Below, in pieces: positions 7,764 to 63,962 of a DNA stretch of 64,000 bases (positions are counted from its first letter, which is position 1; each line of letters starts with the position of its first letter). This DNA comes from a virus (lineage: Duplodnaviria; Heunggongvirae; Uroviricota; Caudoviricetes): positions 30,452 through 94,451 of IMG/VR virus record IMGVR_UViG_3300025898_000004, one strand, 5' to 3'. The notes beneath the pieces were generated by a model, which was not told the DNA's origin, ran no database searches, and worked only from the letters and a program-made list of their open reading frames with translations. The position numbers and the translations under genes are program-made.

Positions 7764-8429
7764 ATGACGATGATCATGGAAGAGAGGGATCGAATGACCG
7801 AACCCACCACACCATCACACTGGACAACCGACGTGGTCGAACGCCTGGACCTCATCCGCGCCGGCCACTACACACTGCCACAAGCCGCCGAGTACATCGG
7901 CCTGTCCGAAGCCACCGTACGGGACCTGCTGTCCCGCCCGGTGATCACCGCCACACACAACATGCTGGCTCCGATCAGCCGCCCGGCCATGCGCCTCGGT
8001 GGCGAACCCATCTACACCCGCCGCCAGCTGGACGAAGTCAACACCCGACGTGCGGCCACCCGGCGCTTGCGCTCCAGTGAGCTGGACAAACTGACGTTCG
8101 AGGAAGCCGAACGGCAACACCTCAGGTCGTACGCGGAGATGGCGGAACTGTTCAAGTTCCATGAGAACACGCTCCGGAAGTGGGGTGGCGCGCACGATGA
8201 CTTCCCCGTGGCCACGGCCAGTCGGGAACATCCGGGCGGCTACCCCGGTACCCCGACAGTCGTGTTTGACGCCGTGGAAGTGCTCCGGTGGCTGATCATT
8301 CACGACAAGGTCAAGGCGGAGGATTTCGAGGTGAACGGCCGGGTGGTCGTGTGCCTCATTCCGGACGACTCCGAAGAGGACGAAGACGGGGAACTCGAAG
8401 AGATCGAACAGGAAACCCTGGTTCCCTGA
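7764..8429 (+). CDS. helix-turn-helix DNA-binding protein (MerR/excisionase-like HTH 'LPQAAEYIGLSEATVRDLLS'), acidic C-terminal tail; possible switch regulator
   Basis: ORF track; HTH pattern; ATG 7764 would be leaderless, alternative ATG 7794 has RBS 'gagaggga'. Confidence 0.6.
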   Translation: MTMIMEERDRMTEPTTPSHWTTDVVERLDLIRAGHYTLPQAAEYIGLSEATVRDLLSRPVITATHNMLAPISRPAMRLGGEPIYTRRQLDEVNTRRAATRRLRSSELDKLTFEEAERQHLRSYAEMAELFKFHENTLRKWGGAHDDFPVATASREHPGGYPGTPTVVFDAVEVLRWLIIHDKVKAEDFEVNGRVVVCLIPDDSEEDEDGELEEIEQETLVP

Positions 8430-8517
8430 TACCCCTTCCCCTTGCGGGACAAGGAGATCACAATTCGGTGTGGACGGTCGCCCAACACGGGGCGGCCCCT
8501 CCACAGTGGAGACGATC

Positions 8518-8694
8518 ATGGAAAACCCCGTCAAGGGAACCGTCACCGAGTACCACCACGCACAGGTGATGATCCAAGGTGTACACATCTACATCGGCGA
8601 AAACATGTCCCTGGTTGGACGTGACCAAATCGACATGCTTTACTTGGATGGTCCACACCAGGGTGAACATGTCACTACCTACCGGGTTCGCTGA
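8518..8694 (+). CDS. hypothetical small protein (58 aa)
   Basis: Internal ATG of ORF 8470..8694 with 'ggagacg' RBS; moderate GC3; weak. Confidence 0.3.
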   Translation: MENPVKGTVTEYHHAQVMIQGVHIYIGENMSLVGRDQIDMLYLDGPHQGEHVTTYRVR

Positions 8695-10514: not shown

Positions 10515-10724
10515 ATGAACGGCAAGGACCACTACAACACGGGAATCCGGTGCCTCAACCAGGTCTCCGAACTGGTTGAGAAGGCCGGCGAGACCGGACA
10601 CATCACCGAGGCGGACAAAGGCACCCTGGACGTGCTGGCCACCCTCGGCAACATGCACTTCGCCGCCGCCACCGCCTACGCCCTCAACTTCGACCGCATT
10701 CCTGTCCGGAGCGTGACCGGATGA
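10515..10724 (+). CDS. hypothetical protein (69 aa)
   Basis: ORF track; strong RBS 'aaccaaggaggacaccgac' before ATG. Confidence 0.6.
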   Translation: MNGKDHYNTGIRCLNQVSELVEKAGETGHITEADKGTLDVLATLGNMHFAAATAYALNFDRIPVRSVTG

Positions 10725-11251
10725 CCACGACCATGGACCCGATCGCCGCTCACGTCGACTACGTACAGCGACTCTTGGCGCTCACGTCGAAGCCGGAGAC
10801 CGCCCGCGCCGTCCAGGCCGTGTTCACACACGGTCAGGACACGGCGGCCCCGGCCGCCGGTCGGCTGGCCCTGATCGGCTCCGCCGCCGCCCCGCGCGTC
10901 GCGCTGATCACCAAGGTAACCCCCACTCGCGTGCAGGTGTCCTACCTGACCGAAAGCGGCATCCGGCACGGCCGCACCATGGCCGCCTACAACTCCCACC
11001 CGATCCACCTGGACAGCTGGCCCGAAACCTACCGGGACAACGCCCGCACCGGATGGCACAAGAACCCCGAACGTCAGCTCTGGTCCACTGAAGATGACTA
11101 CGCGAACTACCACTACGAATGGGCGCTCAAGACGCAGGCCGTCTATCGCGCCGTGACACACTGCCCGTGGGTGGCGTTCGCGCCCATTCGCCACGCGTGG
11201 ATCCGCCGTCACCACCTGGCGATGATTCCCGAGAACGGAGAAACCAAGTGA
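10721..11251 (+). CDS. hypothetical protein (176 aa)
   Basis: ORF track; ATGA overlap with upstream gene. Confidence 0.55.
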   Translation: MTTTMDPIAAHVDYVQRLLALTSKPETARAVQAVFTHGQDTAAPAAGRLALIGSAAAPRVALITKVTPTRVQVSYLTESGIRHGRTMAAYNSHPIHLDSWPETYRDNARTGWHKNPERQLWSTEDDYANYHYEWALKTQAVYRAVTHCPWVAFAPIRHAWIRRHHLAMIPENGETK

Positions 11252-11631
11252 AGTTCACCGCGAATTATCAGAACGGCGGCCACGCCGAATTCGAATGGGA
11301 GGGCGACTCGGCCGACCCGGAACAGATGGACGACCTGTTGGAATCCGCGTACCGGGCGGCCCCGGGCGGTCTGTGCCATCAGTGCGCCGGGAAGTACTCC
11401 ATTTCGGAGGACACGGAGGTGTACGAGATCCGGGAAACCGACACCGGAAACAAGGTGTTCAGCGAACCGACCTGGGACGATCAGATTCGTGAATCCGCCA
11501 TTAATGCTACCAAGTTGAACGCCGAATTGGTGGCGAAGCTGGCCACGGTCGAACAGCAACGGTTCATGTTGGCGAACCGCCTTCGCAAGGCCGGGTTCAT
11601 GGTGGACCCGGACACCTGGGCCGTGTCCTGA
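11248..11631 (+). CDS. hypothetical protein (127 aa, GTG start)
   Basis: GTG with RBS 'ggagaaacc' in ORF 11119..11631; GTGA overlap with upstream stop. Confidence 0.5.
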   Translation: MKFTANYQNGGHAEFEWEGDSADPEQMDDLLESAYRAAPGGLCHQCAGKYSISEDTEVYEIRETDTGNKVFSEPTWDDQIRESAINATKLNAELVAKLATVEQQRFMLANRLRKAGFMVDPDTWAVS

Positions 11632-11990
11632 TGTCCCGCTGTCCCGGACGGCCGGGACACGGCGGGACACCGGACATCCCCGGGACACTAGACGTCGCAC
11701 CGGGACACCGTGTCCGGTGTCCCGGTCCTGTCCCGGGACACTCGGCGGGACATGTCCCGGCCGTTGTCCCGGCGAGCCCGGGACAAGGTGTCCCGCTGTC
11801 CCGGGACGTGTCCCGCCCGGCCCGGGACACTCGGCGGGACAACCCGGGACAGTGTCCCGGGACGTGTCCCGCCCGGCCCGGGACACTGTGTCCCGAGTGT
11901 CCCGGGCTCTTCACTGGGACAGTTGTCCCAGCTCGTCCCGCTATCGTGTCCCGCGTGTCCGGTCGCGCGGCCCCGGCGGAGCGCCGTCCA
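11632..11990. repeat. dense array (about 30 copies, both orientations) of the 7-8 bp motif TGTCCCGG/CCGGGACA, with longer direct repeats (e.g. cccgggacgtgtcccgcccggcccgggacact at 11797 and 11857)
   Basis: Seen directly; immediately 3' of the FtsK/TraB-like gene; candidate clt/TRS-like, parS-like or iteron array. Confidence 0.7.
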
Positions 11991-12054
11991 GTTCGGGAAG
12001 AACCCCGCCAGACACAGCACGGCCCCACCGATCCATGCCGGTGGGGCCGTGTCG

Positions 12055-12140
12055 TTTGTCCACTGGACGTGTGATCGTCCAGTGAGGGGGCTGGGGGAGT
12101 GTAACTACAGGTCAGAGCCTTGGAATCGTCCAGTGGACAA
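12055..12140. repeat. 13-bp inverted repeat tgtccactggacg ... cgtccagtggaca plus direct repeats of atcgtccagtg
   Basis: Seen directly between the repeat array and the stop of the translocase gene. Confidence 0.55.
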
Positions 12141-12151
12141 GGAATGGACGA

Positions 12152-14185
12152 TTACCCAGCGTTGACAAGCTCCTCGTTTGGCAACGTCCAGTTACCGCGC
12201 TTGGTGGCCCGTGCTCCCATCTCCGTCAACTTCGCGTACGTCCACGATCGTGCCCGCGTGGCCGATTTCGCCAGGTCCCGGACATGCGCCCCGTCCGGCC
12301 CGGCCGCCCGCAGGGCGGACACCAGCGCCTCAATCGCGTCCGACTCGGACAGCTTCGGCGGATCCAACTCCGCCATCAGCGCGTCCCGGGCCGCCTGCGC
12401 CATGTCCTGCTGTCCCGCCGTCAATGACTCCTGGTGCCGGCGCACCAGCTCCGCCAGCGGGACATCCGGCCCGTCCATCCACGTCGGTTCCGGGACATCC
12501 TGTCCCGCCTGTCCCACGTCATCCTGTCCCACGTTGTCCCGCCCTTGTCCCGCGTTGTCCCGGCTGTCCCGGGACATGTCCCGGGTGTCCGGGACAGTGT
12601 CCTGGTGTCCCGGGACAGGGTTGCCGTCATCGTCGAGCGGGACAACATGCGGCCGGTCCGCGTACAGCTGGGACACCGCTGTGGCCGCCGCCGACGACGT
12701 CTCGTCCAGTTCGCACGTGCGCCCTTGACGCAATTTGACGAGAGTGGACACGGTGGAGTCCGACACGTATTGAATACGAATCGGCATCCGATCGATCGTT
12801 TCGGCGTCCTGGTAGTAGCACGTTCCCGGCCGCGATTGCGGAATGAGGTTCGCGCCCACCTTCCCGTCCCGGCGTGTGCCGAACACGAAGTACTCCCCGT
12901 CTTCGCCTTGCATCCGGAAACAGAACCGCTGATCCAATTGTTCACGAACAAGGTTCGAGCCGTACGCCAACAGCGTCGGATACTGGGTGGCCTCCACGAT
13001 CTCGACACCGAGGGCGCGGCCCTTCTGAATGATCCGCTCCAACATTTCTAGTTGCTTGCGGTTCATCGCGCCGTTGAACGAGTGGCACTCGTCCACGACA
13101 ACCGTCAACACCGGGAATTCCGGTGTCATCGGCCAGCGGCGAACTTTCAGGACTTCCGCACAATACTTCGCGCGGGCGTCCACCACCGCTTCGAGCGCTT
13201 CGAGCATTTCCAGCGATTCGTCAAAGGTGGTGACGCACCAGTCCATGGCGTTGCGCCACGGTCCCAGTTCCATTCCGCCTTTGAGGTCGATTCCCCACAC
13301 CACGGCATTGCGGCAACACACCCGCGTGCCCACGATGATGTTGACCAGACCAGACTTGCCGGAGCCCTTCGCGCCGGCGAGCATCACGGACCGGGAGCCG
13401 TACTCCTTACTGTCTGTGAGGGTCATGGTCTTCAGAACCCCGTCCTCCCGGTAACCGAGAGTGATCGGGTCGCAGGCGTCCAGCTCCCGGACGTACCACT
13501 CCCCGTTGATCTCCTCGGCGGGAATCTCCCAGTTGATCCCTTTCTCATGCGGGTCCGTCACGAACGCCTTGAACGTGACCGAATTCGAGTCCCGGCCGTT
13601 CCTTTCCATGCGGAGCGTGCCAGTCGGCAACGCCAATGCGCCTTCGATACGCTCCCGCTTCTCCAGGATCTCCGCCACTGTGTAGTCCCCGGCGGGCCAC
13701 ACCAGACGGCCCTCGAAATTGCCGCCACCGTGCGCCCGAATAGCGACCGTGCGCACGGTGTCTATGCGCAACTTCCGTGCCAGCGCCGGCCACCGCTCCA
13801 CCGTTTCCGTGAGGGTGACCCGTGTCCGTCGCCGATTGTTCCGCCACCACGGGATACCCATGGCCAGGCCAGCGCCGGCCGTGATTGGCGCGGTCCACGA
13901 AAAGTGCGACCAGCCAAGTTCATGCAACGTGAGCACGACCGAACTGGACGCGGCCAACACGCTGAACAGGTACAGCTTGTTCCGGTCGTCGCCGCCGTAC
14001 GCGGAGATCCACGACCCGGCCGCCGTCGCGGCCCCGGCGACCCCGAGGGCCACCGGGGCAAACGGCGCGTACTGCGAGATCTCACCCAGTGCGACAGTGC
14101 CGGCGGTGACGAACATAGGCGTCAACTCCGACCGGCGACGGCGCATGGTGCCGAACACTGCTCCCGTCACCTTTGTGACGCTCAT
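12152..14185 (-). CDS. FtsK/SpoIIIE/TraB-like membrane DNA translocase (N-terminal TM helices, Walker A GAKGSGKS, Walker B VVVDECH, C-terminal winged-helix-like domain; repetitive RD/GQ-rich linker encoded by the TGTCCCG repeats)
   Basis: ORF track (677 aa); motif inspection; RBS 'aaggaaagggg' before ATG. Confidence 0.75.
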   Translation of the reverse strand: MSVTKVTGAVFGTMRRRRSELTPMFVTAGTVALGEISQYAPFAPVALGVAGAATAAGSWISAYGGDDRNKLYLFSVLAASSSVVLTLHELGWSHFSWTAPITAGAGLAMGIPWWRNNRRRTRVTLTETVERWPALARKLRIDTVRTVAIRAHGGGNFEGRLVWPAGDYTVAEILEKRERIEGALALPTGTLRMERNGRDSNSVTFKAFVTDPHEKGINWEIPAEEINGEWYVRELDACDPITLGYREDGVLKTMTLTDSKEYGSRSVMLAGAKGSGKSGLVNIIVGTRVCCRNAVVWGIDLKGGMELGPWRNAMDWCVTTFDESLEMLEALEAVVDARAKYCAEVLKVRRWPMTPEFPVLTVVVDECHSFNGAMNRKQLEMLERIIQKGRALGVEIVEATQYPTLLAYGSNLVREQLDQRFCFRMQGEDGEYFVFGTRRDGKVGANLIPQSRPGTCYYQDAETIDRMPIRIQYVSDSTVSTLVKLRQGRTCELDETSSAAATAVSQLYADRPHVVPLDDDGNPVPGHQDTVPDTRDMSRDSRDNAGQGRDNVGQDDVGQAGQDVPEPTWMDGPDVPLAELVRRHQESLTAGQQDMAQAARDALMAELDPPKLSESDAIEALVSALRAAGPDGAHVRDLAKSATRARSWTYAKLTEMGARATKRGNWTLPNEELVNAG

Positions 14186-14200: not shown

Positions 14201-15148
14201 TTACGCGTTCGGTACGGCAATTCCGCTGCGGTACAGCGACAGCAACGGCCCATACACGGTTTCGATGGTGTTCACAATCGCGGTCCACTGGGAGGCTTCC
14301 GCGTCGGCCAAATCAACCAACGGCTTCAGCCCGTGAACCACCAGCGGATCCATGTTCAGGCGACCAATCAAGGTCTTCTGAAGCTCGTGCAACGCGTCCG
14401 CCTTGTCGCTGGCCGCCGCCGCCAGTCCGGCGACGAGATCCAGAATTTCCTGCGTGCTTCGGGGGATCGCTTCGCCTACCCCGGTCCATGCTCGTGCGAC
14501 GGCGTGCGCCGTGCTTGTGCTGTCGGACATGACTGCACGTCCCCTTTCTTCGATCCTGCGTCGGTGGCGTTCCACGTAGGTGGATGCCTTGTGGTGCCCG
14601 GCGGTGGTTGGTGTGGCCCGGTGCCGGCCGGCGGGTGCGCCGGGTGTGGGCCGGACCTTCACCTTCCCCCTGTGGCGGGATTTGTAGCTGTGGTGCAACG
14701 TGGCTGGAGTGTGCGGTTTCGGTTCCCGTTTCTCCCCGTTGTGTTTCTCGATGTAATGCAAATTCAGGGCCATGGTGCTGGTGAACGTCTCGCCGCAAAT
14801 GCAGTGAACGGCGTGTTTGACGCGCCATTCGCCGCGTTTACGTTCTATCTTCGGCACCTTGTGGGGTGCCCATTTTGGCGCGCGGCTTTTCTGGACGTGT
14901 CGGCGTACATGGGGTGCGACGGCGCGGGTTCCTTCGATCGCGCCGACGGTGGCCCCGGCCGCCGCGTAGCCGGCGATTTTCACTGCGCCCAACGTGATGT
15001 GCAGCACTGGCCGCAACAGCTTGTGTTTGCGGGGAACACGGTCCGCCAGTCCGGACCGGTACCACTTGGTTTTTCGGACGTGACTGGCGAACCGCTTTCC
15101 CATGGTGGTTGACGTGTCGGTGGTGCGTTGCGCCTTGCCTTTCGACAT
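14201..15148 (-). CDS. basic protein with C2H2-like zinc finger (CICGETFTSTMALNLHYIEKH), 315 aa
   Basis: ORF track; RBS 'ggagaggag' before ATG; operonic with the translocase. Confidence 0.55.
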   Translation of the reverse strand: MSKGKAQRTTDTSTTMGKRFASHVRKTKWYRSGLADRVPRKHKLLRPVLHITLGAVKIAGYAAAGATVGAIEGTRAVAPHVRRHVQKSRAPKWAPHKVPKIERKRGEWRVKHAVHCICGETFTSTMALNLHYIEKHNGEKREPKPHTPATLHHSYKSRHRGKVKVRPTPGAPAGRHRATPTTAGHHKASTYVERHRRRIEERGRAVMSDSTSTAHAVARAWTGVGEAIPRSTQEILDLVAGLAAAASDKADALHELQKTLIGRLNMDPLVVHGLKPLVDLADAEASQWTAIVNTIETVYGPLLSLYRSGIAVPNA

Positions 15149-15151
15149 CGC

Positions 15152-15931
15152 TTACTCCTCTCCGACGGCTCGCTGTTCGAGTCCGGCGCGGATGCGGCCC
15201 AGCGTCTTGCGGGTGGTGTCTTTCTTGGCGTCCAGGTGAACGCCAACGTGGGTGTGCACCGTGGCCGGCGTGGCGTCCGGGTTGTCGTCCAGGTACCGGG
15301 TGATGGCGGCCCGGAGGTCCATGTCCGGGGTGAGCCAGTCCGGCGCGGGCGCGGTCATCTCGGTGACGCTGGCCAACGGTTCCGGGGCGGCCGGCGACTC
15401 TGGTGCCGGCACGGGGGCTGGAATCTGAGCCGGAGTGGCCTTCGGCTTCGGCGCTGGTGTGGCGGTCGCGGTCTTCGTGGCGCGTGCCTTGCGGATGGTG
15501 GTGAGGCCACGGCGCATGACCAGCATGTGAATGACGGCCGCCAGCGTTGCCGGCGGAATCGCGCCGACCAGCAGCACGACACCCCAGACGGGGGCGAGTT
15601 TCTCGACGTTGAGGAACAGGTCCAGTCCGTTGGCTCCCAGGGACAGGCTGATGGCGGTGAGTGCCAGTCGCCGGGAGTAGCGGCGGGTGTCGTTGTCGGT
15701 CGTGCGGGACAGCCAGATTCGGGTAGAGGTGTATGCCACCGCGTCCAAACAGACGGGCCATACCCAGGACAGCCATCCGTTGAATCCGCACATGTCAGCG
15801 AGGTCACGTGAGGAGTTGAACGACAGCACGGCCGCGCCCCCCACGATGAGGCTGGACATGGCGTGAATGTCCAGCTCAGAGAACCAGCGTGAGCCTTTTT
15901 CGGGCAGGCTGGTTCGACCTTCCGCGTTCAC
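15152..15931 (-). CDS. DUF2637-like membrane protein (Spd-like, as found beside TraB in actinomycete conjugative elements), C-terminal Pro/Ala-rich linker
   Basis: ORF track; GTG 15931 with AAGGAG 6 nt upstream; hydrophobic N-terminal half with 'WLSWVWPVCLDAVAY'. Confidence 0.5.
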   Translation of the reverse strand: MNAEGRTSLPEKGSRWFSELDIHAMSSLIVGGAAVLSFNSSRDLADMCGFNGWLSWVWPVCLDAVAYTSTRIWLSRTTDNDTRRYSRRLALTAISLSLGANGLDLFLNVEKLAPVWGVVLLVGAIPPATLAAVIHMLVMRRGLTTIRKARATKTATATPAPKPKATPAQIPAPVPAPESPAAPEPLASVTEMTAPAPDWLTPDMDLRAAITRYLDDNPDATPATVHTHVGVHLDAKKDTTRKTLGRIRAGLEQRAVGEE

Positions 15932-16041
15932 TGTCAACTCCTTTGCTCCGTTTGCGGGTAGACAACCTCCTTGGTTATGGGAGAGGATATGCCCGCGCGG
16001 GGGAGTCCCGCAAGACAGGTTGGATTTACCAGGGAGTGGAA

Positions 16042-16242
16042 ATGAAGGCCGACCAGCTGGCCGCCCTGTTGAAGAGGGCTATTAGCGAAGGCAAATATTC
16101 TTCGGGGGACAAGTTGCCCAGCGAATCCCAGCTCAGCCGCACACATGGGATGTCCGTACACACCGTGCGGGAGGCCCTGTCTCAGCTGGTGGGCCAGAAT
16201 CTCGTGGTGAAGCGCAAGGCGTTCGGCACGTACGTTAAGTGA
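16042..16242 (+). CDS. GntR-family winged-HTH domain protein (67 aa; 'LPSESQLSRTHGMSVHTVREALSQL'), divergent from the translocase operon
   Basis: HTH signature read from ORF 15889..16242; ATG 16042 with 'agggag' RBS. Confidence 0.55.
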   Translation: MKADQLAALLKRAISEGKYSSGDKLPSESQLSRTHGMSVHTVREALSQLVGQNLVVKRKAFGTYVK

Positions 16243-30102: not shown

Positions 30103-30603
30103 ATGTCCACATCGGACGCCGTGCAACGTGAAGCGGACTGGCTGTCTTCATTCGGTGACGGACTGCCCGCGTTGCTCAAGACGAACGGCGGCCCATGGGA
30201 CCTGGTTCAGGCGTACTGGCCTCGGACGCCGAACTACAACCTGAACGGCATCTACGTCACGCGGACCAGGATCACCGATATTCGATGGTCCAACCAACGG
30301 AAGCTGCCGCGATACACGTTCCGCCTGAAGCTGTTCTGGCGTATTGGTTCCACCACAACGGGAACGATGATCGCCGAGACGGAGCAGGCCAATTTCGACG
30401 CGGCCGTGGACCTTCTGATCGATCGACTTCGGGGCACGTTGGGCGACAAGACCCACGGTGGACGGTTCCTGTCCGCCACCGAGGCACCCGGCCGGAACCC
30501 CGAGATCAACATCGATTTTGACCCGCCAGAGACCACGATGGACCGTGGTTTCCTGTCCGGCACCGCCAACTATGAGGCGGACGACTTGGAAGTCGTTATC
30601 TAA
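30103..30603 (+). CDS. head-tail joining / tail terminator-like protein
   Basis: 166 aa, position between connector and major tail genes. Confidence 0.45.
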   Translation: MSTSDAVQREADWLSSFGDGLPALLKTNGGPWDLVQAYWPRTPNYNLNGIYVTRTRITDIRWSNQRKLPRYTFRLKLFWRIGSTTTGTMIAETEQANFDAAVDLLIDRLRGTLGDKTHGGRFLSATEAPGRNPEINIDFDPPETTMDRGFLSGTANYEADDLEVVI

Positions 30604-47460: not shown

Positions 47461-47712
47461 TCAACCCTTTGAACTGACGAGTTGACGATACCGCGCCACC
47501 ATCACCACCGTACGAATGTCCCGCGCCTGCTCCCGGCCGGCACGCTCCAATGCGTCCAGCCACACCATGAACTCCGCGTGCGTGATCCTGTCCTCAGCGT
47601 GACGACGCTCCCGCACGTACCAACGCACGTACGGGAGCGTCACCAGCATCACGCCCAAGACGGACAGCGTGATGTCCGTCGTCACTTCTCGCCCTTCTCC
47701 TTCGGAGTCCAC
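47461..47712 (-). CDS. small membrane protein (83 aa)
   Basis: ORF track. Confidence 0.35.
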   Translation of the reverse strand: MDSEGEGREVTTDITLSVLGVMLVTLPYVRWYVRERRHAEDRITHAEFMVWLDALERAGREQARDIRTVVMVARYRQLVSSKG

Positions 47713-48657
47713 ACGAAACGCTCACCCTCGCCCGGCTTCTCCAGGAGAATCCGGGGAGACAGCGCGATCACACTGCCGGCCTTGATCGGCGTGCGCGGAA
47801 GCTGAAGCTTCAGGTTCGCCTTGCGCTCCACCCACAGGTTCCACGCGTTCGACACGTGGTACAGCTGATCGTCCGCCTTCTCCCGGATCGATTCCCGCTT
47901 CTGCCGCACGAGCTTGTTGCGCAGCGACAGAATCGGGTTGCCGGCACTCATGTCCTCCCCCGTGCGGAGGTAGAACAGGAACTTGTCTGCCCAGTGCACG
48001 TCAATCCGCGCGGCCCGGAAGTGGACGGCCGCCGCCACCGATGGCTTGACGCCCGACGCGTTGAACACGGCGAACGCCAGGCCGGCGGAACGCTCAATCG
48101 CGTCCTTGTGCGCCCGGCACCAGCGAGTGACCTCCGGGCGGGCCGGGGCGTACAGGTCTGACGCCAGCGCCCACGTCTCCATGTTGGGATCGTCGCTGTA
48201 GCCCCACCGCATGAGCAGACGCGCCGCTGGGGCCGCCGCCACGGCGTGCTTGATATCCGCCATGGCAACCTGCTGGGTGGCCTTGCGGGTGGAGTTGGTG
48301 TCCATCACGTCCTGGGTCTCAGGCTCCAAACCCAGGATGATGTCCACCACAAGCGGCACACCGCACAACTCAACAGCCCTCAGGCGATGCTGGCCGTCCA
48401 GAAGACGGCCGTTCTTGTCGACCCGGATCGGGTCACCGACGTAGGGCCAGCCGCCTTCGGTCTCCATCATGCGGGCATAGGACACGGCCAACGTCTGACT
48501 CAGCCGCCGGTTGTTCTCGTTGGCGTTGAGGAGCCGTGTGGCTGTTTCCGCGTCGATGGTGACGGTGTAGCGCTCCACTCCCGGCGGCAGGGAAGCGAAC
48601 TTGAGCCCGAACTCCCCAAGCATGTCGGTTGCGGTCCGGTTGGCAATCATGGTCACT
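47682..48657 (-). CDS. ParB/Srx-like N-terminal domain protein ('DGQHRLRAV')
   Basis: Motif read directly; start GTG 48657 or ATG 48651 after 'caccaaggag'. Confidence 0.65.
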
Positions 48658-48678
48658 GACGATACTCCTTGGTGTGTT

Positions 48679-49035
48679 TCACTGAACGATATCCAGAATC
48701 CCGTTCTCATTGGTGATCCGTGGATCACCCAACTCGATGGCGCGACGCAGGTTCATCGCGAGTGTGGTCCGTTGGATTCCCAGCGTCTGGGCGATGTCCT
48801 CTTGGCTGATCTGCGGATCCGCTGTGCGTGCGGCCACGAACGCGGCCACGATCTCCTCCCGGTTGTTCTGGAGGAGTGGGTAAATGCCCAGCTCACCCCG
48901 GTTGCGTACGCCGTAGTAGCAGCCGGAGCACAGGCCCCGGGAAACGTGCTTCCGTTCGCCGGCCTCCGCGTTCCTGCTGCCCGTCATGGGCTTCCCGCAG
49001 CGCCGGCACAGCCTTGCGGCCTGGTTGTCGGCCAT
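48679..49035 (-). CDS. zinc-ribbon + HTH DNA-binding protein (118 aa)
   Basis: CxxC...CxxC N-terminus, HTH-like C-terminus. Confidence 0.45.
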   Translation of the reverse strand: MADNQAARLCRRCGKPMTGSRNAEAGERKHVSRGLCSGCYYGVRNRGELGIYPLLQNNREEIVAAFVAARTADPQISQEDIAQTLGIQRTTLAMNLRRAIELGDPRITNENGILDIVQ

Positions 49036-58196: not shown

Positions 58197-58724
58197 CTAA
58201 CACTTCCATGAATGATCGTTTACTACCCTTGAAACAGTTGTACGATCAACTCCGTATAGTACGGCGATGTCTTTAACTTTCATTCCCGACTGACGCTTGG
58301 ATTTTATATCCTGAACTATTTCGTTTGAAAGTTTAGATCGTCCGTTTCCTTCTCCGCGAAGCTTAGAGGAATCTTGCCGCATGAAATGTTGATCCCCATA
58401 AGCGTGGCGATTACGCTCAATAGAATCTCTCTTGTTATCTTTGGAACTACCCCACTCCAGATGGTCAGGATTCATACAAGGAGGGGTGTCACGCTTGTGT
58501 CGCGCGTTAGATCCTAGCCTGCCTGTAACGGCCTTCAGTACAGCCCGATTGCCGCGCCAGTTTTTGCCGTCAATGAACAGCTTCGGATACCCGTCCTTAT
58601 CTTTACCTTTTTGCCAAATCCAACAGCCTGTAGACGGATCAATGGAGCACTCTTGTCGAACATCATCGACAAGAGTGCTCCATTGCCACCTAGGCGGTCG
58701 CGGTCTCCCACGGCCAAACGCCAC
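58197..58724 (-). CDS. HNH homing endonuclease (motifs 'DGYPKL', 'CMNPDHLEWG') with C-terminal HTH; lies in a low-GC islet
   Basis: Motifs read directly; local GC clearly lower (58200-58450). Confidence 0.75.
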   Translation of the reverse strand: MAFGRGRPRPPRWQWSTLVDDVRQECSIDPSTGCWIWQKGKDKDGYPKLFIDGKNWRGNRAVLKAVTGRLGSNARHKRDTPPCMNPDHLEWGSSKDNKRDSIERNRHAYGDQHFMRQDSSKLRGEGNGRSKLSNEIVQDIKSKRQSGMKVKDIAVLYGVDRTTVSRVVNDHSWKC

Positions 58725-60456
58725 GCTGCCCCATTTCGATCAACGGAACCAACTTGAAAGTAGAATCTCCCAATCCGCCCAGCTCGTGACGGTTCGTGCC
58801 GGCCGTCATCGCACCCGCGTACCCAGCCAGGTTGAACGAGTACACCGGCACCTCCGCCGGAACGTAGCGGTTCACCGCGTCCGTCCCGCCGTTCCAGCCG
58901 TTCCCCATCAGTTGCATGTCGGAGAACACGAACACCCGCGTGTGCTCCCCGCGCCGGAACGTCTTGGCCAGAGCCTGCGCCAAATCCGTCCCGTGCCCCA
59001 CCGAACCGGCCCGGTTCGTGAACCGCGCAACCTGTTCGATCAGCGCCGCACCGGTCTTGATCTCGTGCGTGAATGTGCCCGTAGCCCACCCGGCCAGGTC
59101 CACGCGACCCCGGTTCCGGAACGCCAACGCCACACCGAACAGAGCCGCCGCGTCCACACACGACACCTGGGACTTCCCAGACATCGGCGCGGACATCGAC
59201 GCCGACGTGTCGACCAGGATCAGCGTGCGCCCGTCCAGCTCCGGAATGTTCTGCGTCGACAGGGTCAGCGCCGTGTTCAGCGCCGAACCCCACCGCAACG
59301 ACCCGGCCGCCATGCGGTACGCGGACAGGAACCGGAACGGGAACTGCTTGCACCGGGCAACCTGGTCCGGGTCCGCCAGCTTTGCCGCGATCACGGCCGC
59401 AACCTTGTCTGACACGCCGGCCTTGTCGAAGTTCGCCAAGTTCCGCAGAAGCGCCATGTAGCCCATGGACGGGATCACGGCCTCCCACGCCTGCGCCGTC
59501 ATGCCCTGGCCGTCCGACAGCCACCCGGACAGCCACTCCCACGTCGCGCCGGCCGCGTCCAAGCGGGGCGTGAGCACGCCAGCCGACAAGGCGTTACGCA
59601 GCCAGGTGCGCCGCTCTGGCACCGGAACAGCCTCCAGCGACGCGCGGTAGCGCACCATCGGGAGGGGAGCGCCCTGTCCGTCGTTCGGCACCGCGTCCGC
59701 CCGGCCGTGCCGGCGGTCCAACAGCCACCGGTAGAGCGCGTTACGGTTGCCCGTGTTCGCGTCGTCCGGGTGGACGATGTCAACGACGTCCCCGAACCGG
59801 ACGCCGTACGCGTTGGTGTCGTACTTCAGGGCGGAGAACTCCGTGTACAGGCGCGGTAGGGTGTCCCCGATGGCGCGCTTCATGCACATGGGGAGCGCCC
59901 GGCCGAACCGCGACCGCCAGTAGGCGATCATCTCGCCCGGTTCGTCGGCGCGCAGCAGCGCCGCCCGCAACAGGTCCCGGTTGCCGCCCTCGATGCCGGC
60001 CTTCAGGCGCGCGTGCACGGCCTCGCAGGCGATGACGATCGGCGCGGTACGCATGTTGCCCTTGCGCCGCAACCAGTCCACGAACGGCAACAGCCACTCC
60101 AAACCGGTGTCCGGATTCGCGGCGTGCTCGCGGCTGGCCACGGTGTGCGCCGCCGTCGCCATGAACGCCGTCGCCACGGCCTTGGACAGGGTCCGGCTTG
60201 CGCTGTCGGTCGCGATGGCGGCCGCCAGGTCCCGCACACGCTGTACGGTCGCGTCGCCAGTCTCGTAGAACTTGTTCTCCGCGATGAACCCGGCCGTGGC
60301 TGTCAGGAACAGCTGGCCCTGGTCCGTGCGGGCAAACGACGGCGCACCCTCGAACGTGCGCGCTGACGCGCGCCGGTCCACGACAATCGGCGACAATCCG
60401 CCTGCGCCGACACCGACACGACCGAACGTGTCCGGCAACTTGTTGAACTTGGACAT
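58690..60456 (-). CDS. rsr: Ro60 orthologue (Rsr): TROVE domain plus vWA domain with MIDAS motif 'DTSASM'
   Basis: Domain pattern read from ORF 58690..60594; ATG 60456 (MSKFNKLPDTFG) has RBS 'aaccaaggagtgtggagt'. Confidence 0.75.
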   Translation of the reverse strand: MSKFNKLPDTFGRVGVGAGGLSPIVVDRRASARTFEGAPSFARTDQGQLFLTATAGFIAENKFYETGDATVQRVRDLAAAIATDSASRTLSKAVATAFMATAAHTVASREHAANPDTGLEWLLPFVDWLRRKGNMRTAPIVIACEAVHARLKAGIEGGNRDLLRAALLRADEPGEMIAYWRSRFGRALPMCMKRAIGDTLPRLYTEFSALKYDTNAYGVRFGDVVDIVHPDDANTGNRNALYRWLLDRRHGRADAVPNDGQGAPLPMVRYRASLEAVPVPERRTWLRNALSAGVLTPRLDAAGATWEWLSGWLSDGQGMTAQAWEAVIPSMGYMALLRNLANFDKAGVSDKVAAVIAAKLADPDQVARCKQFPFRFLSAYRMAAGSLRWGSALNTALTLSTQNIPELDGRTLILVDTSASMSAPMSGKSQVSCVDAAALFGVALAFRNRGRVDLAGWATGTFTHEIKTGAALIEQVARFTNRAGSVGHGTDLAQALAKTFRRGEHTRVFVFSDMQLMGNGWNGGTDAVNRYVPAEVPVYSFNLAGYAGAMTAGTNRHELGGLGDSTFKLVPLIEMGQRGVWPWETATA

Positions 60457-60480
60457 ACTCCACACTCCTTGGTTTGAGCA

Positions 60481-60525
60481 ACAAAAAAGGAGATGCCCAC
60501 ATGCCGGCTGATACTCGGCATGTGA
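60481..60525 (-). terminator. hairpin cacatgccg/cggcatgtg followed on the minus strand by CTCCTTTTTTGTTG, immediately upstream of the rsr RBS
   Basis: Seen directly. Confidence 0.55.
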
Positions 60526-60700
60526 ACACCTCCCGTGTGTGAACGTTTCCCCCGCAGGGGACCGACGCGCCGGGTGCGGACATCTTCCGGACAACGTAGC
60601 TCACTCGGTTACGCGCGCCGCGCCCAGGAATCGAACCTGATCTAGTGGGTTTGGAATCCACTGTCCGCACACAGCGGCCGCGACTTAAGTTGGCTCCCAC
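60481..60700 (-). ncRNA. candidate Y RNA (YrlA-like): tRNA-like domain (60616..60684; canonical T-arm tcagg-TTCGATT-cctgg, Trp-like anticodon loop TTCCAAA, imperfect acceptor and D arm) followed by about 90 nt and a terminator
   Basis: Element does not fold as a canonical tRNA; adjacent to Ro60 gene; bacterial Y RNAs with tRNA-like modules beside rsr are established (recalled). Confidence 0.45.
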
Positions 60701-60830
60701 TTCGTTGGTGTCCTTACGCACGAACCGGCAGGAAGCCTACATCCATCCGCGTGCGTAAAGTGACGGCTTCGGGGACTTGATCCCGTCACGTGCTACTAGA
60801 GGCGATGCCCCGGAGTCCCAGCACCTTCCG

Positions 60831-60901
60831 AAGCGGACACGGGATTCGAACCCGTATGGACAGCTTTGCAGGCTGCTACCTAGCCATTCGGTCAGTCCGC
60901 C
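60831..60901 (-). tRNA. tRNA-Cys (GCA)
   Basis: Manual cloverleaf fold: acceptor ggcggac/gtccgct, anticodon arm gcagc-ctGCAaa-gctgt, T-arm acggg-TTCGAAT-cccgt; 71 nt, no CCA. Confidence 0.75.
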
Positions 60902-61019
60902 ATGACGGCCGTGCCCTATGCTGCGGGACACGGACGCCAACTCCCTCACCGTGGATGGTGAGAATGGAGAGCACAACTTTTCAGGAACCTGCACCGGTGT
61001 CCGTAGGTGCTGTGCTCAG

Positions 61020-61094
61020 TAGTCCTACCCGGATTCGAACCGGGAACCTCCACCACCTCAAGGTGACGCCTCTGCCATGTTGGGCTATAGGACC
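61020..61094 (-). tRNA. tRNA-Leu (GAG), atypical class-I-like form with 5-nt variable loop, A73
   Basis: Manual fold: ggtccta|ta|gccc-aacatggcag-aggc|g|tcacc-ttGAGgt-ggtgg|aggtt|cccgg-TTCGAAT-ccggg|taggact|a. Confidence 0.65.
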
Positions 61095-61104
61095 AGGGGA
61101 CCGC

Positions 61105-61344
61105 TCACGCGGCCGTGTCGACTGTGGCGCGGGTACGCCACCGCCGGTAGTTCAGTACTCCCACCGCGACCATACCGAGGTTCATCACAAATCCCCAGTA
61201 TCCGGTTGCGATGCCGAACGCCACCATGCCCAGTTGCACGGCGACCAGCACAACCCACCCGCTGATCTTCCCGCGCCCCACGAGCCACGCGGACAAGATG
61301 TTGAACGGGCCGAACAAGAACGTGGACGCTAACGCTACGTTCAT
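61105..61344 (-). CDS. small hydrophobic protein (79 aa, 2 TM) embedded in the tRNA array
   Basis: ORF track; strong RBS 'caccaaggagatggt' before ATG. Confidence 0.5.
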   Translation of the reverse strand: MNVALASTFLFGPFNILSAWLVGRGKISGWVVLVAVQLGMVAFGIATGYWGFVMNLGMVAVGVLNYRRWRTRATVDTAA

Positions 61345-61364
61345 ACCATCTCCTTGGTGAGGAG

Positions 61365-61440
61365 TAGTCCTACTGGGATTCGAACCCAGAACCTCCCGGA
61401 CCTGAACCGGACGCCTCTGCCAAAGTTGGGCTATAGGACC
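61365..61440 (-). tRNA. tRNA-Leu (CAG), atypical class-I-like form with 5-nt variable loop, A73
   Basis: Manual fold: same architecture as 61020..61094; anticodon arm tccgg-ttCAGgt-ccggg. Confidence 0.65.
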
Positions 61441-61540
61441 GTGACGTGAGCGCTACCACAACGCTCACGTTTCATACACAACACCGTTCCGTGCTGTCAT
61501 CGCGAACCGTCAGAGGCACCCTGATTAACCCCGACAGTCG

Positions 61541-61611
61541 TACCGCACGAGGGATTCGAACCCCCACGGGAGTGGTTTACAGCCACGCCGGCACAACCAA
61601 CGCTGTACGGT
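61541..61611 (-). tRNA. tRNA-Tyr (GTA) candidate with short D loop and 5-nt variable loop
   Basis: T-arm ggggg-TTCGAAT-ccctc, acceptor accgtac/gtgcggt, anticodon arm cgtgg-ctGTAaa-ccact; D arm fold poor. Confidence 0.5.
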
Positions 61612-61746
61612 ATGAAAGCGGCCTCATCCCTAGCCGCCACGGTGGACCCACAACAGCAGATTCACGAATGAACCCACTTTCCTCGCTTCCCACTTCCGGT
61701 CTGCCGCAACACCTCGGAAAGGCTCGGCCTTTTACAACGACAAACG

Positions 61747-61820
61747 TAGCCCCTACGGGATTCGAACCCGCGATATCCTGGATGAAAGCCAGGCGGCTTA
61801 GGCCACTTGCCTAAGGGGCT
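61747..61820 (-). tRNA. tRNA-Glu (TTC)
   Basis: Manual fold: agcccct|ta|ggca-agtggccta-agcc|g|cctgg-ctTTCat-ccagg|atatc|gcggg-TTCGAAT-cccgt|aggggct|a. Confidence 0.75.
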
Positions 61821-61832
61821 TTAATTACTGCG

Positions 61833-61906
61833 TAGCCGCGCCGGGATTCGAACCCGGAACCTTCCCCTTTTGAGGGGGACGCCTCTGCCTATTGGGCTAA
61901 GCGGCC
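61833..61906 (-). tRNA. tRNA-Leu (CAA), atypical class-I-like form with 5-nt variable loop, A73
   Basis: Manual fold: ggccgct|ta|gccc-aataggcag-aggc|g|tcccc-ctCAAaa-gggga|aggtt|ccggg-TTCGAAT-cccgg|cgcggct|a (7:66 mismatch). Confidence 0.65.
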
Positions 61907-62046
61907 CAGATGGTGACTTTCTGTCGTAGGGGTTTCACAGCACTCGGACGGTTACGACAGTAAACCGCTACCCTTGCGTTGCCTGCGTCCCTTTGCGTCT
62001 AGCGTCCAGGCGATCAAGCTGGACGGTCACCCACTAGCCGATAACG

Positions 62047-62119
62047 TAGCGCATACGGGGCTCGAACCCGTGACCTCCCGGCTGAGAACCGGGTGTTCCG
62101 CCAATTGAACTAATGCGCC
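62047..62119 (-). tRNA. tRNA-Glu (CTC)
   Basis: Manual fold: ggcgcat|ta|gttc-aattggcg-gaac|a|cccgg-ttCTCag-ccggg|aggtc|acggg-TTCGAGC-cccgt|atgcgct|a. Confidence 0.7.
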
Positions 62120-62120
62120 A

Positions 62121-62197
62121 TGGCACCCTTAGAGAGATTCGAACTCCCGACAACCCGGATCCGTAATCCGGTGCTCTATCCACTGAGCTATAAGGGC
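62121..62197 (-). tRNA. tRNA-Arg (ACG) with encoded CCA
   Basis: Manual fold: gccctta|ta|gctc-agtggata-gagc|a|ccgga-ttACGga-tccgg|gttgtc|gggag-TTCGAAT-ctctc|taagggt|g|cca. Confidence 0.7.
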
Positions 62198-62198
62198 T

Positions 62199-62275
62199 TG
62201 GGTTGACCGACGGGACTCGAACCCGCATAAACCACACTCACAATGTGGGGCCTTGTCCATTAGGCTACAGTCAAC
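62199..62275 (-). tRNA. tRNA-His (GTG) with encoded G-1, C73 and CCA
   Basis: Manual fold: g|ttgactg|ta|gcct-aatggaca-aggc|c|ccaca-ttGTGag-tgtgg|tttat|gcggg-TTCGAGT-cccgt|cggtcaa|c|cca; 1-nt spacers to both neighbouring tRNAs. Confidence 0.75.
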
Positions 62276-62276
62276 G

Positions 62277-62350
62277 TCCCACCCCCGGGAATCGAACCCG
62301 GAACCTTCGGTTTCGGAAACCGATGCTCTGTCCTGTTGAGCTAAAGCGGG
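62277..62350 (-). tRNA. tRNA-Arg (CCG)
   Basis: Manual fold: cccgctt|ta|gctc-aacaggaca-gagc|a|tcggt-ttCCGaa-accga|aggtt|ccggg-TTCGATT-cccgg|gggtggg|a; three G-U pairs in acceptor. Confidence 0.6.
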
Positions 62351-62528
62351 TTACCGCTCATTGCGGTAATGTTCCTCGAACACAGGCTGCGATACCCGGG
62401 CAAGCTTCAAATACAACTCCCTGTGACCCGGATTCGCATTATCCCAATTCAAATCCACGTGATATCCGTGGATAATGCTAAACATTGCTCTCGCGGCTTC
62501 GATGATCAAAGGAGAATCTTCGGTCACG
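62351..62528. other. low-GC spacer inside the tRNA array carrying two perfect hairpins (ttaccgc/gcggtaa 62351-62369; atccacg/cgtggat 62451-62471); no tRNA fold
   Basis: Seen directly; minus-strand 44-codon ORF has low GC3 and no SD, so probably noncoding. Confidence 0.4.
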
Positions 62529-62600
62529 TCCCCCTCCGGGGAGTCGAACCCCGACCCTACCGTTTAGGAAACGGTCGCTCCTCCGTTGCGCTTGAGGGGG
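62529..62600 (-). tRNA. tRNA-Arg (CCT)
   Basis: Manual fold: ccccctc|aa|gcgc-aacggag-gagc|g|accgt-ttCCTaa-acggt|agggt|cgggg-TTCGACT-ccccg|gaggggg|a. Confidence 0.7.
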
Positions 62601-62682
62601 ATTAGGTGCCCCGTCCGGTGCGGCAAACACCGAAACGGGGCGATGTTCACGAATCCCTAGCCAGGGCTCTTTGATGTGAACG

Positions 62683-62767
62683 CGGAAGCTAAGGGATTCG
62701 AACCCTTGGGACACGAGGCCCACGTCATTAGCAGTGACGCCCAATCGGCCAGCTCTGGCAAGCTTCC
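62683..62767 (-). tRNA. tRNA-Ser (GCT), class II with 15-nt variable arm
   Basis: Manual fold: ggaagct|tg|cca-gagctggccgat-tgg|g|cgtca-ctGCTaa-tgacg|tgggcctcgtgtccc|aaggg-TTCGAAT-ccctt|agcttcc|g. Confidence 0.75.
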
Positions 62768-63056
62768 TCATCGCGTGTGGAGCCCGGGCGACCGGTTACT
62801 TTCCCGCCAGGCGCAGCGATAGCCACCGCCGCACCATTCCGCAAGTGTTGTATCCCCCTCTTTTGGGGACCCGGAACTCATTCACACGAAGCAAGATCGG
62901 GGCAGGCCCGTACGCGACCCGTTTCAGCTATCCCGTGGCCGTCTAGAACAGCCTTGGGAATCAACGCCTATCCGTGCTTATCATCCAGCCACATCGAAAC
63001 GGTCCCTTGGGTATCGCGGGACACTGGGCCTTGACGATTTATGACGGTCCCCAACG
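62768..63056 (-). other. 289-nt tRNA-free gap inside the tRNA array with internal repeats (gggaccgt x2) and stem-loops; candidate ncRNA or degenerate tRNA
   Basis: No TTCGA T-loop anywhere in the interval; no convincing ORF (ORF-track hits overlap tRNAs). Confidence 0.3.
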
Positions 63057-63137
63057 CAGAGGGTAAAGGAATCGAACCCTTAGGTGTCACCCTAGCCCGG
63101 ACTTCGAAACCGGTTTGCCGCCACGGCGCTACCCTCC
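63057..63137 (-). tRNA. tRNA-Ser (CGA), class II with 15-nt variable arm
   Basis: Manual fold: ggagggt|ag|...|ccggt-ttCGAag-tccgg|gctagggtgacacct|aaggg-TTCGATT-ccttt|accctct|g; D arm short. Confidence 0.65.
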
Positions 63138-63207
63138 GAGACGCGCCCCCTCTAGGTCGCCACCGAAGAGAGGGGACGCTCACCCGCCGACACGGCAACG
63201 GGTGTAG

Positions 63208-63278
63208 AGCGGATGACGGGAATCGAACCCGCGTCTTTAGTTTGGAAGACTATGACTCTGCCATTGAGCTACATCCGC
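63208..63278 (-). tRNA. tRNA-Gly (TCC), U73
   Basis: Manual fold: gcggatg|ta|gctc-aatggca-gagt|c|atagt-ctTCCaa-actaa|agac|gcggg-TTCGATT-cccgt|catccgc|t. Confidence 0.75.
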
Positions 63279-63284
63279 ATTGCG

Positions 63285-63527
63285 TTACTCTGGATATTCA
63301 ACAGCTCCCGGAATGAGACTGCCCAACAGGCGAAACTGATCTGGGTAGGCCCGCGCCGCCGCCTGCGACATGATCATTCGTTGGAGCACGTGAATGTGAT
63401 GACAGGACTCGGTCAGGTCATCCATTCGCGTCGGACCGTCCGCCACGATCCGGCACATGTTCATGTGCACCTGACCAAGCATCACGGCCGTTTCTTTTTC
63501 GAGTTGCGTCAACAGTTCCGAGTCCAC
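63285..63527 (-). CDS. hypothetical protein (80 aa, GTG start) embedded in the tRNA array
   Basis: ORF track; moderately high GC3; weak RBS. Confidence 0.3.
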   Translation of the reverse strand: MDSELLTQLEKETAVMLGQVHMNMCRIVADGPTRMDDLTESCHHIHVLQRMIMSQAAARAYPDQFRLLGSLIPGAVEYPE

Positions 63528-63573
63528 GCCACCCCGAATGCTAGTAGCAATATTGTCTTGCGGCGAAACAACG

Positions 63574-63646
63574 CTGACCTAACTGGACTCGAACCAGCAT
63601 CCCCCAACTTAACAGGATGGTGCTCTGCCAATTGAGCTATAGGTCA
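63574..63646 (-). tRNA. tRNA-Asn (GTT), G73
   Basis: Manual fold: tgaccta|ta|gctc-aattggca-gagc|a|ccatc-ctGTTaa-gttgg|gggat|gctgg-TTCGAGT-ccagt|taggtca|g (one T-T mismatch in anticodon stem). Confidence 0.65.
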
Positions 63647-63886
63647 TTAGGCCCGTCCCCCAGGTCTTTCACCCGGAATGCCACAGTCGCGAACCATGAG
63701 CATTGCTTTAATATGCTGGGACGGATGGAAGCCCGATAGGTGGATCTCCGCCACAGCCTCACCAGTGGTGAGCGGTATCGTGTTTCATCACCATTGTGGG
63801 TACCGCACTTGGGGTTGAACTCCGGCACTCGGGCCAACATGCCGGATGGTATAAACCCGGAACGCGAGGAACCGGGCGGGAAAACG

Positions 63887-63962
63887 TGGCAGCGGTGGGA
63901 TTTGAACCCACGATCTCCGACTTATGAGGACGGCGAGGACGACCGAACTCCTCTACGCTGCT
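63887..63962 (-). tRNA. tRNA with CAT anticodon (Met, or Ile2 if lysidinylated); 1:72 A-C mismatch
   Basis: Manual fold: agcagcg|ta|gagg-agttcggtcgt-cctc|g|ccgtc-ctCATaa-gtcgg|agatc|gtggg-TTCAAAT-cccac|cgctgcc|a. Confidence 0.6.

Follow-up and report, generated by a model that had tools for sequence, protein, structure and literature searches.

The subject of this analysis is a block of short repeats in a 64,000-nucleotide stretch of DNA, hereafter the window (positions 30,452 to 94,451 of IMG/VR record IMGVR_UViG_3300025898_000004), where it lies between a small gene and a convergently transcribed gene for a TraB-like double-stranded DNA translocase of the FtsK/SpoIIIE type, hereafter traB, and continues into the latter. 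The window comes from a tailed phage of about 92 kb and encodes a tape-measure protein, tail proteins, a terminase, a portal and an endolysin, along with 16 tRNA genes. A near-identity search with segments of the window found no close DNA relative in phage or plasmid collections, and the comparative set consisted of about 20 related loci, designated by L numbers, in which TraB identity ranges from 89% down to about 27%. Motif copies in the window were counted on both strands, and the chance level was obtained from shuffles. The features of the locus are listed in Table 1.

Table 1. Features at and around the repeat block, with positions counted from the first letter of the window.
Feature	Position	Strand	Description
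Convergent gene	11248..11631	+	127 aa; stop codon abuts array A
Array A	11632..11962		about 30 copies of the 8-mer sCGGGACA, with invariant core GGACA, in both orientations
Island TAGACGTCGCACCGGGACA	11689..11707	+	inside array A
Exact 35-bp direct repeats TGTCCCGGGACGTGTCCCGCCCGGCCCGGGACACT	11797-11831 and 11853-11887	+	56 bp apart, within array A
GC-rich hairpin	12018..12051		13-bp stem CACGGCCCCACCG / CGGTGGGGCCGTG, 8-nt loop; from a direct hairpin search
Box/core element	12057..12151		directly after the traB stop, before the putative terminator; separate from the 8-mer array
TraB-like FtsK/SpoIIIE double-stranded DNA translocase	12152..14185	-	677 aa; source annotation starts 23 codons later (654 aa)
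Array B	12403..12645		about 19 copies of the sCGGGACA motif within traB, dense at 12490-12620
315-aa module protein	14201..15148	-	conserved; separates the DUF2637 gene from traB in every relative
DUF2637 membrane protein	15152..15937	-	first gene of the traB operon; homologues on actinobacterial plasmids
GntR-type winged-helix protein	16042..16242	+	66 aa; divergent from the DUF2637-traB operon

Two arrays of one 8-mer and a separate box/core element

Array A starts about 190 bp beyond the traB stop and is bounded by the stop codon of the convergent gene on one side and by the terminator hairpin on the other. The usual form of its motif is (C/G)CGGGACA, often present as the 12-bp palindrome TGTCCCGGGACA. 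A first reading, made from the letters and their open reading frames (hereafter the sequence-only reading), had described an array of TGTCCCGG/CCGGGACA here, and the counts bear this out: CCGGGACA occurs 32 times in the window in comparison to 5.4 +/- 2.3 times in shuffles, with 24 of the 32 exact copies within 11640-12617 and the other 8, outside this 1-kb zone, at about the chance level. The motif is roughly six-fold over chance and restricted to about 1 kb. The GGGACA hexamer gave 85 matches in the window, 44 of them in 11500-12700, and sliding windows showed 29 copies of CGGGACA in the 1-kb window in comparison to a median of 4 and a 95th percentile of 7 for the commonest 7-mer elsewhere, the repeat zone being the sole outlier of its kind in the window. 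Together, arrays A and B hold the 24 exact copies of CCGGGACA and about 21 copies with one mismatch, and the sites number about 45 to 50 overall.

The exact direct repeats reported earlier within array A do exist and begin at 11797 as described, but they are 35 bp long instead of 32, and the second copy lies at 11853, 56 bp away, instead of at 11857 and 60 bp away. They are the longest exact direct repeat in the array and indicate a recent local duplication. The AGACGTCGCACCGGGACA portion of the island in array A recurs in L001, L002 and L108; the remaining array is rearranged.

The sequence-only reading had missed the second array, which carries the same motif within the final quarter of traB. 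Its dense part, nt 12490-12620, codes for aa 523-566, at a predicted disordered (low-confidence) linker, aa 527-576, which joins the motor to the C-terminal winged helix. The hexamer of array B lies within the traB frame in two phases forward and two phases reverse, and the linker peptide differs markedly among the window, L001 and L108 while the DNA motif is retained. Since several phases and both orientations are in use and the peptide changes around a DNA motif that is kept, the repeated unit is the DNA, with selection acting at the DNA level; the motif is apparently tolerated in the part of TraB that is under the least constraint. The downstream array of more distant relatives similarly extends across the tails and starts of small convergent genes. 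A separate observation concerns the homologue of the convergent gene in L004 (7226..7924, minus strand, 232 aa), in whose repeat-rich C-terminal part the motif stands in frame as repeated ...ERDNLS....

The intervals 11632..11990 and 12055..12140 had been regarded as one nested region, and in this respect the earlier description does not stand: they belong to two different elements with the terminator hairpin between them. A strong hairpin of unrelated sequence is found 100 to 190 positions past the stop in most relatives, its position and stem strength being kept, and the hairpin of the window is likely a bidirectional terminator between the convergent transcription units. A scan of the region for consensus promoters and terminators found nothing.

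On the traB side of the hairpin, boxes of the CGTCCAsTGGACA type (12057-12069, 12074-12084, 12125-12139 and 12144-12151) lie on both sides of a core at 12084-12115 that is conserved throughout the family (minus strand CTGACCTGTAGTTACACTCCCCCAGCCCCCTC). The 13-bp inverted repeat (TGTCCACTGGACG at 12057 and CGTCCAGTGGACA at 12127) and the direct copies of ATCGTCCAGTG (at 12074 and 12125) that had been noticed earlier are both present. The core is about 32 nt long and reads CTGACCTGTA-N4-CTCCCCCAGCCCCCTC on the traB strand; it is kept down to about 32% TraB identity, far above the flanking DNA. The whole element was found in all 19 loci examined, 45-147 bp past the stop. The boxes vary by lineage, with GTCCA, GTCCGG and TTCCGCG types and variants such as CGTCCAAT in L001, TGTCCGGCGG in L005 and L010, TTCCGCGCGGAA in L023 and L024, and GTTCCGGTG in L026, and the box type does not follow the TraB helix: one and the same box can accompany more than one kind of helix and of array motif. 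The boxes of L007 and L011 form direct repeats about 11-12 bp apart, a spacing which suggests protein binding.

The box/core region shows good RNA folding (z = -4.2), and an Rfam scan of the whole window returned tRNAs only, with nothing near the gathering score in the repeat region. The element may be a minimal loading site, a site for a partner protein, a promoter or a short C-rich RNA; a promoter would be compatible with the genes that L001 and L028 have inserted immediately downstream. The inserted open reading frame of L001 (about 8130-8640), between the box/core element and the terminator, looks by eye like an HNH endonuclease, and its C-terminal 60 aa or so are similar to the winged helix of TraB, as the match of TraB in tblastn extended to 8640; L028 has another small open reading frame inserted at the same spot. 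A role of the boxes as operator of the GntR-type protein found no support, as exact boxes occur solely at 12058 and 12128, with none in the GntR-DUF2637 promoter region, and some of the loci with boxes have no GntR gene.

Coding status of the interval 11631 to 12074

Long open reading frames in all six frames across the array had been reported, and this was confirmed. The motif brings a stop codon into none of the frames, which is why all six remain open, and annotators are cautioned that these reading frames are artefacts of a stop-free repeat. One of them, 11631..12074, had been put forward as a possible gene for a Pro/Gly/Arg-rich repeat protein, coupled to the upstream gene through a TGATG overlap. 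The TGATG is indeed present at 11629, and it also occurs in L002 and L108; furthermore, the frame is open in all relatives, and in four distant loci (L004, L006, L007 and L023) the array overlaps real-looking coding sequence on that strand. These points speak for translation. Against it, all six frames are open, and the overlap, and with it the start, is missing in L001, whose TraB is 89% identical to that of the window. Between the window and L001 or L108 (81-89% TraB identity) there are indels of 1, 2, 10, 11 and 15 nt, so that the frame of 11631..12074 is not kept.

Other lines of evidence point the same way. The open reading frame traverses the hairpin at 12018-12051, and as this hairpin is kept in position and stem strength and not in sequence, it carries the signature of a terminator and not of a peptide. 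With 0.65-0.72, the third-position GC content in the frame gives no coding signal; in 10721..11251, 11119..11631 and traB it amounts to 0.74-0.88, and for the majority of genes in the window it is about 0.8. Family searches found no family match for the product, and the gene callers of two source assemblies, in independent annotations, called no gene and left gaps of 533 and 534 bp at the interval. Taken together, the open reading frame 11631..12074 is very probably not a gene, and we regard a translated, TGATG-coupled repeat protein as very unlikely.

The translocase and the layout conserved among its relatives

The TraB-like protein matched the NCBIfam model plasmid_TraB (NF041214) with an E value of 1.3e-29 over residues 39-657, nearly end to end, and its closest plasmid matches are annotated traB, with 22-28% identity; judged from these comparisons, it is a distant relative of plasmid TraB and no equivalog. 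The AlphaFold model (mean pLDDT 80) predicted N-terminal membrane helices, a beta domain, an FtsK-type motor, a disordered linker and a C-terminal domain of three helices plus a wing (helix-helix-helix-wing, aa 614-667). The top structural matches of the model were FtsK motor structures (E 4.9e-17), a PDB profile search matched FtsK and the conjugation coupling protein TcpA, and the GxxGSGKS (Walker A) motif is invariant. For the C-terminal domain, the winged-helix profile matches were weak, and the fold assignment rests on the full-length model together with these profiles, the single-sequence model of the domain (pLDDT 60) being too poor for a fold search. A defence system was considered and rejected, the PADLOC matches being weak and at the level of the motor alone (mad8 and HerA).

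The protein has 64 homologues, nearly all of them metagenomic; many of their contigs are 80-130 kb long and have portal genes in the vicinity. One phage-like contig of the same clade, L028 (NZ_DASTBH010000562.1, 105 kb), was binned in a metagenome-assembled genome of Actinophytocola (Pseudonocardiaceae), which gives a hint of the host range of the clade.

The surroundings of traB match the layout of plasmid transfer modules. The GntR gene stands where such modules have TraR/KorA, and in actinomycete plasmids the GntR repressor (TraR/KorA) and traB form a kil-kor pair (PMC4447253, PMC4170104, PMC3583192). Relatives carry full-length GntR+UTRA proteins, and GntR is absent from L007 and L025. For the 315-aa protein, family searches returned no match; a Cys/His stretch in it, HCICGETFTSTMALNLHYIEKH, is zinc-finger-like in appearance. 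We interpret the GntR-type protein, the DUF2637 protein, the 315-aa protein and TraB as a putative transfer module of the Streptomyces-plasmid type.

The arrangement around the 3' end of traB is shared by the related loci in a constant order, i.e. an array in the linker, about 400 bp of motif-free sequence coding for the winged helix, the stop codon, three to eight boxes round the core, the GC-rich hairpin and a second array. Motif-rich zones on both sides of the motif-free stretch of about 400 bp, which comprises the winged-helix coding sequence and the boxes, were seen in about 18 of the 20 loci, with few copies elsewhere. This layout persists even though the downstream genes differ, and L001 and L028 have their extra genes between the box/core element and the hairpin. 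Several related contigs stop soon after traB, and a physical genome end was considered for this reason and rejected, as the contigs end at different, unrelated positions. It was also observed that in L007, L010, L022, L023, L025 and others the motifs of the in-gene array are mostly forward relative to traB and those of the downstream array mostly reverse, so that the polarity is inverted about the winged-helix/box centre in those loci; in the clade of the window it is mixed.

The array motif itself changes with the lineage. It is CGGGACA in the window, L001, L002, L004 and L108, CGGGAC[TC]C in L005, (G)CGAGAC(G/A) in L006, L010 and L022-L024, GCGGGAAC in L007, L011 and L014, GAGCGGGA in L012, L013 and L015, GCGGAAAC in L025, and ACGGGGAAC in L017. 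The putative recognition helix of TraB changes in parallel: helices of the form T-R-x-x-S/T-W-L/T/V pair with ...GAC motifs, those of the form G/D-R-x-S-S-W-F pair with ...GAA motifs, and Lys or Arg at the third position is found mostly with CGAGAC. Such a parallel change would look like that of a co-evolving pair of protein and site.

These results also bear on the possibility that the arrays are a centromere-like or regulatory platform for another protein (GntR, the 315-aa protein, DUF2637 or an unlinked partition protein) and that TraB is a mere neighbour. In favour of this, plasmid centromeres typically consist of short repeats arrayed in both orientations, TraB is not the only product of the module that might bind DNA, and covariation is unable to separate genes that are inherited together. 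Yet the arrays always bracket the end of traB that codes for the winged helix, even where the neighbours have changed, L007 and L025 keep their arrays without GntR, and the motif is enriched neither at the divergent promoter nor elsewhere. The sequence-only reading had linked the repeats to a ParB-like protein and a parS-like site, but the supposed ParB (47682..48728, minus strand) has no match in Pfam, NCBIfam, PADLOC or PDB, ParB models included, and hits only PHROG 5931, a family of unknown function; the ParB/parS link is left without support, the arrays following traB instead. A platform for another protein therefore seems to us improbable.

A replication origin with iterons, made up of the arrays, the boxes round the core or both, was another candidate. 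The repeats flank a short and relatively A+T-rich core, TGTAGTTACA, the box spacing is helical in some relatives, and the iterons of pWTY27 are repeats of 7-8 bp (PMC3583192). Against this, a distance of 30-45 kb separates the array from the genes for primase/polymerase and helicase, which are at 43-58 kb, there is no turn of the GC skew at the site, the site lies between convergent genes together with a terminator, part of the array is inside coding sequence, and the core is kept even in very distant relatives, as an unwinding element usually would not be. We thus consider an origin highly improbable. At the far side of the window, a TROVE (Ro60-like) plus VWA protein is encoded at 58690..60594 (minus strand) beside the tRNA cluster at 60830-63962; an Rfam scan of the window gave no Y-RNA family over the threshold.

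A clt/TRS-like reading and what it would mean

In actinomycete plasmids, the clt site consists of repeated 8-bp motifs which are read by helix alpha3 of the winged helix of the cognate TraB (PMC4447253, PMC4170104, PMC3583192), and in pWTY27 the final 16 bp of the tra gene belong to clt as well (PMC3583192). The locus described here resembles such clt/TRS sites of the Streptomyces type in several respects: repeats of 7-9 bp lie at, or overlap, the 3' end of an FtsK-like tra gene, the cognate translocase has a membrane anchor, a motor and a C-terminal winged helix, a GntR regulator stands alongside, and the motif differs between elements. Given a TraB-like protein in the flanking open reading frame, a layout tied to the 3' end of traB in about 20 relatives and a motif linked to lineage, the clt-like reading is the one favoured among the four candidates of the sequence-only reading. 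It appears reasonably probable to us that the repeat block is non-coding, cis-acting DNA and represents an over-sized, two-part clt/TRS-like site for the phage-borne TraB, with the 8-mers as putative recognition sequences for the winged-helix domain of the adjoining translocase. In such a system, TraB hexamers would assemble on the arrays which flank the part of traB coding for their own winged helix, and TraB would then drive the phage genome, as double-stranded DNA, across the membrane or septum to an adjacent cell or hyphal compartment, DNA transfer being the presumed outcome.

Several observations weigh against this interpretation. Characterised clt sites have 4-9 mainly direct repeats in about 50-175 bp, while the present locus has its sites in both orientations over about 1 kb. 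It also differs in having two blocks (of about 330 bp and 240 bp), one of them in the disordered linker of the translocase itself, in its palindromic pairs, in its separate box/core element, in its carrier, a tailed phage, and in the low identity of its TraB to plasmid TraB. As the compact size of clt is exceeded, the locus is classed as a variant and not as a plain clt member. The TraB score against NF041214 was 103 bits in comparison to a cut-off of 800, far below equivalog level. The covariation of helix and motif is confounded by shared descent, and any co-inherited protein of the module would show the same; there are also exceptions, L026 having K at helix position 3 with a GGGA-type motif and L011 having K with CGGGAA. 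Dense arrays were absent near the plasmid relatives of TraB and the cellular ones, the closest of which are in Pseudonocardiaceae, Streptosporangiaceae, Frankia and Actinoplanes, and in the cultured phage Gilgamesh, so that array density is not a general feature of TraB. Finally, the box/core element is closer to a classical clt in size, position and copy number and could be the real loading site of TraB.

This last point leads to an alternative in which the box/core element at 12057-12151 is the minimal clt and the 8-mer arrays are accessory, serving either as polar guides or a landing pad, like KOPS round dif, or as sites for a partner protein. Besides its constant presence at a short distance past the stop, the element, with three to eight boxes of 8-10 bp, resembles the clt of pWTY27 in size and position (PMC3583192); the box type depends on the lineage as the array motif does, and in many distant loci the array polarity is inverted about the box/core centre. 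That polarity may, however, be no more than a consequence of the strand on which the overlapping convergent genes are encoded, and the clade of the window lacks it. Moreover, CGTCCAsTGGAC boxes occur with clearly different helices and array motifs (in the window, L006, L013 and L014), whereas the window and L001 have identical helices and different boxes. We consider the alternative unlikely, and the main uncertainty in the clt/TRS-like reading is which of the two repeat systems, the 8-mers or the boxes, is read by TraB.

Comparison with other systems further places the locus. FtsK gamma with KOPS and SpoIIIE with SRS likewise combine an 8-bp motif with the C-terminal winged helix of an FtsK-family pump, here as the putative reader. 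KOPS converge on dif, and the opposite polarity of the arrays about a central site in several relatives recalls this arrangement; unlike KOPS, which are genome-wide and skewed by replichore, the present motif is not enriched outside its zone of about 1 kb, and in the window clade it is without polarity. The TRS of pSVH1 reads GACCCGGA and has CCCGG in common with TGTCCCGG, a likeness that is not counted as evidence here. Gp10 of Streptomyces phage Gilgamesh is another FtsK-family protein encoded by a phage, with about 26% identity over the motor, but it differs in gene context as well as in the lack of a dense array nearby. Phage genomes with transfer or spreading functions are also represented by the Streptomyces plasmid-phages pZL12 and pSLE1 and by the SpdB2 homologues on phiC31 and VWB; the window differs in that it resembles no record of the phage and plasmid collections at the DNA level. 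No clt or clt-like array on a phage was described in the literature searched.

To our knowledge, TraB-type conjugation has so far been confined to plasmids and integrative elements of mycelial actinomycetes. More tentatively, the related loci might represent a clade of large (about 80-130 kb), tRNA-rich actinophages with a complete, self-specific system for double-stranded DNA conjugation or spreading, in which a much expanded recognition array would enclose the domain that gives the pump its specificity. If this were true, the phage genome could pass between cells or hyphal compartments as naked double-stranded DNA, without virions, and the array together with the winged helix would be a portable, co-evolving specificity cassette, with the putative DNA-binding array written through the disordered linker of the protein itself. 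It has been suggested in one paper that Spd homologues may aid the spread of phage DNA in the mycelium (PMC4170104, PMC4487206, PMC4447253), and a phage clade with a full module and a lineage-specific array would make this idea directly testable. As both the protein domain and the candidate 8-mers are defined, in at least seven specificity classes, the clade would also provide a natural data set on how DNA specificity changes in the winged helices of the FtsK family.

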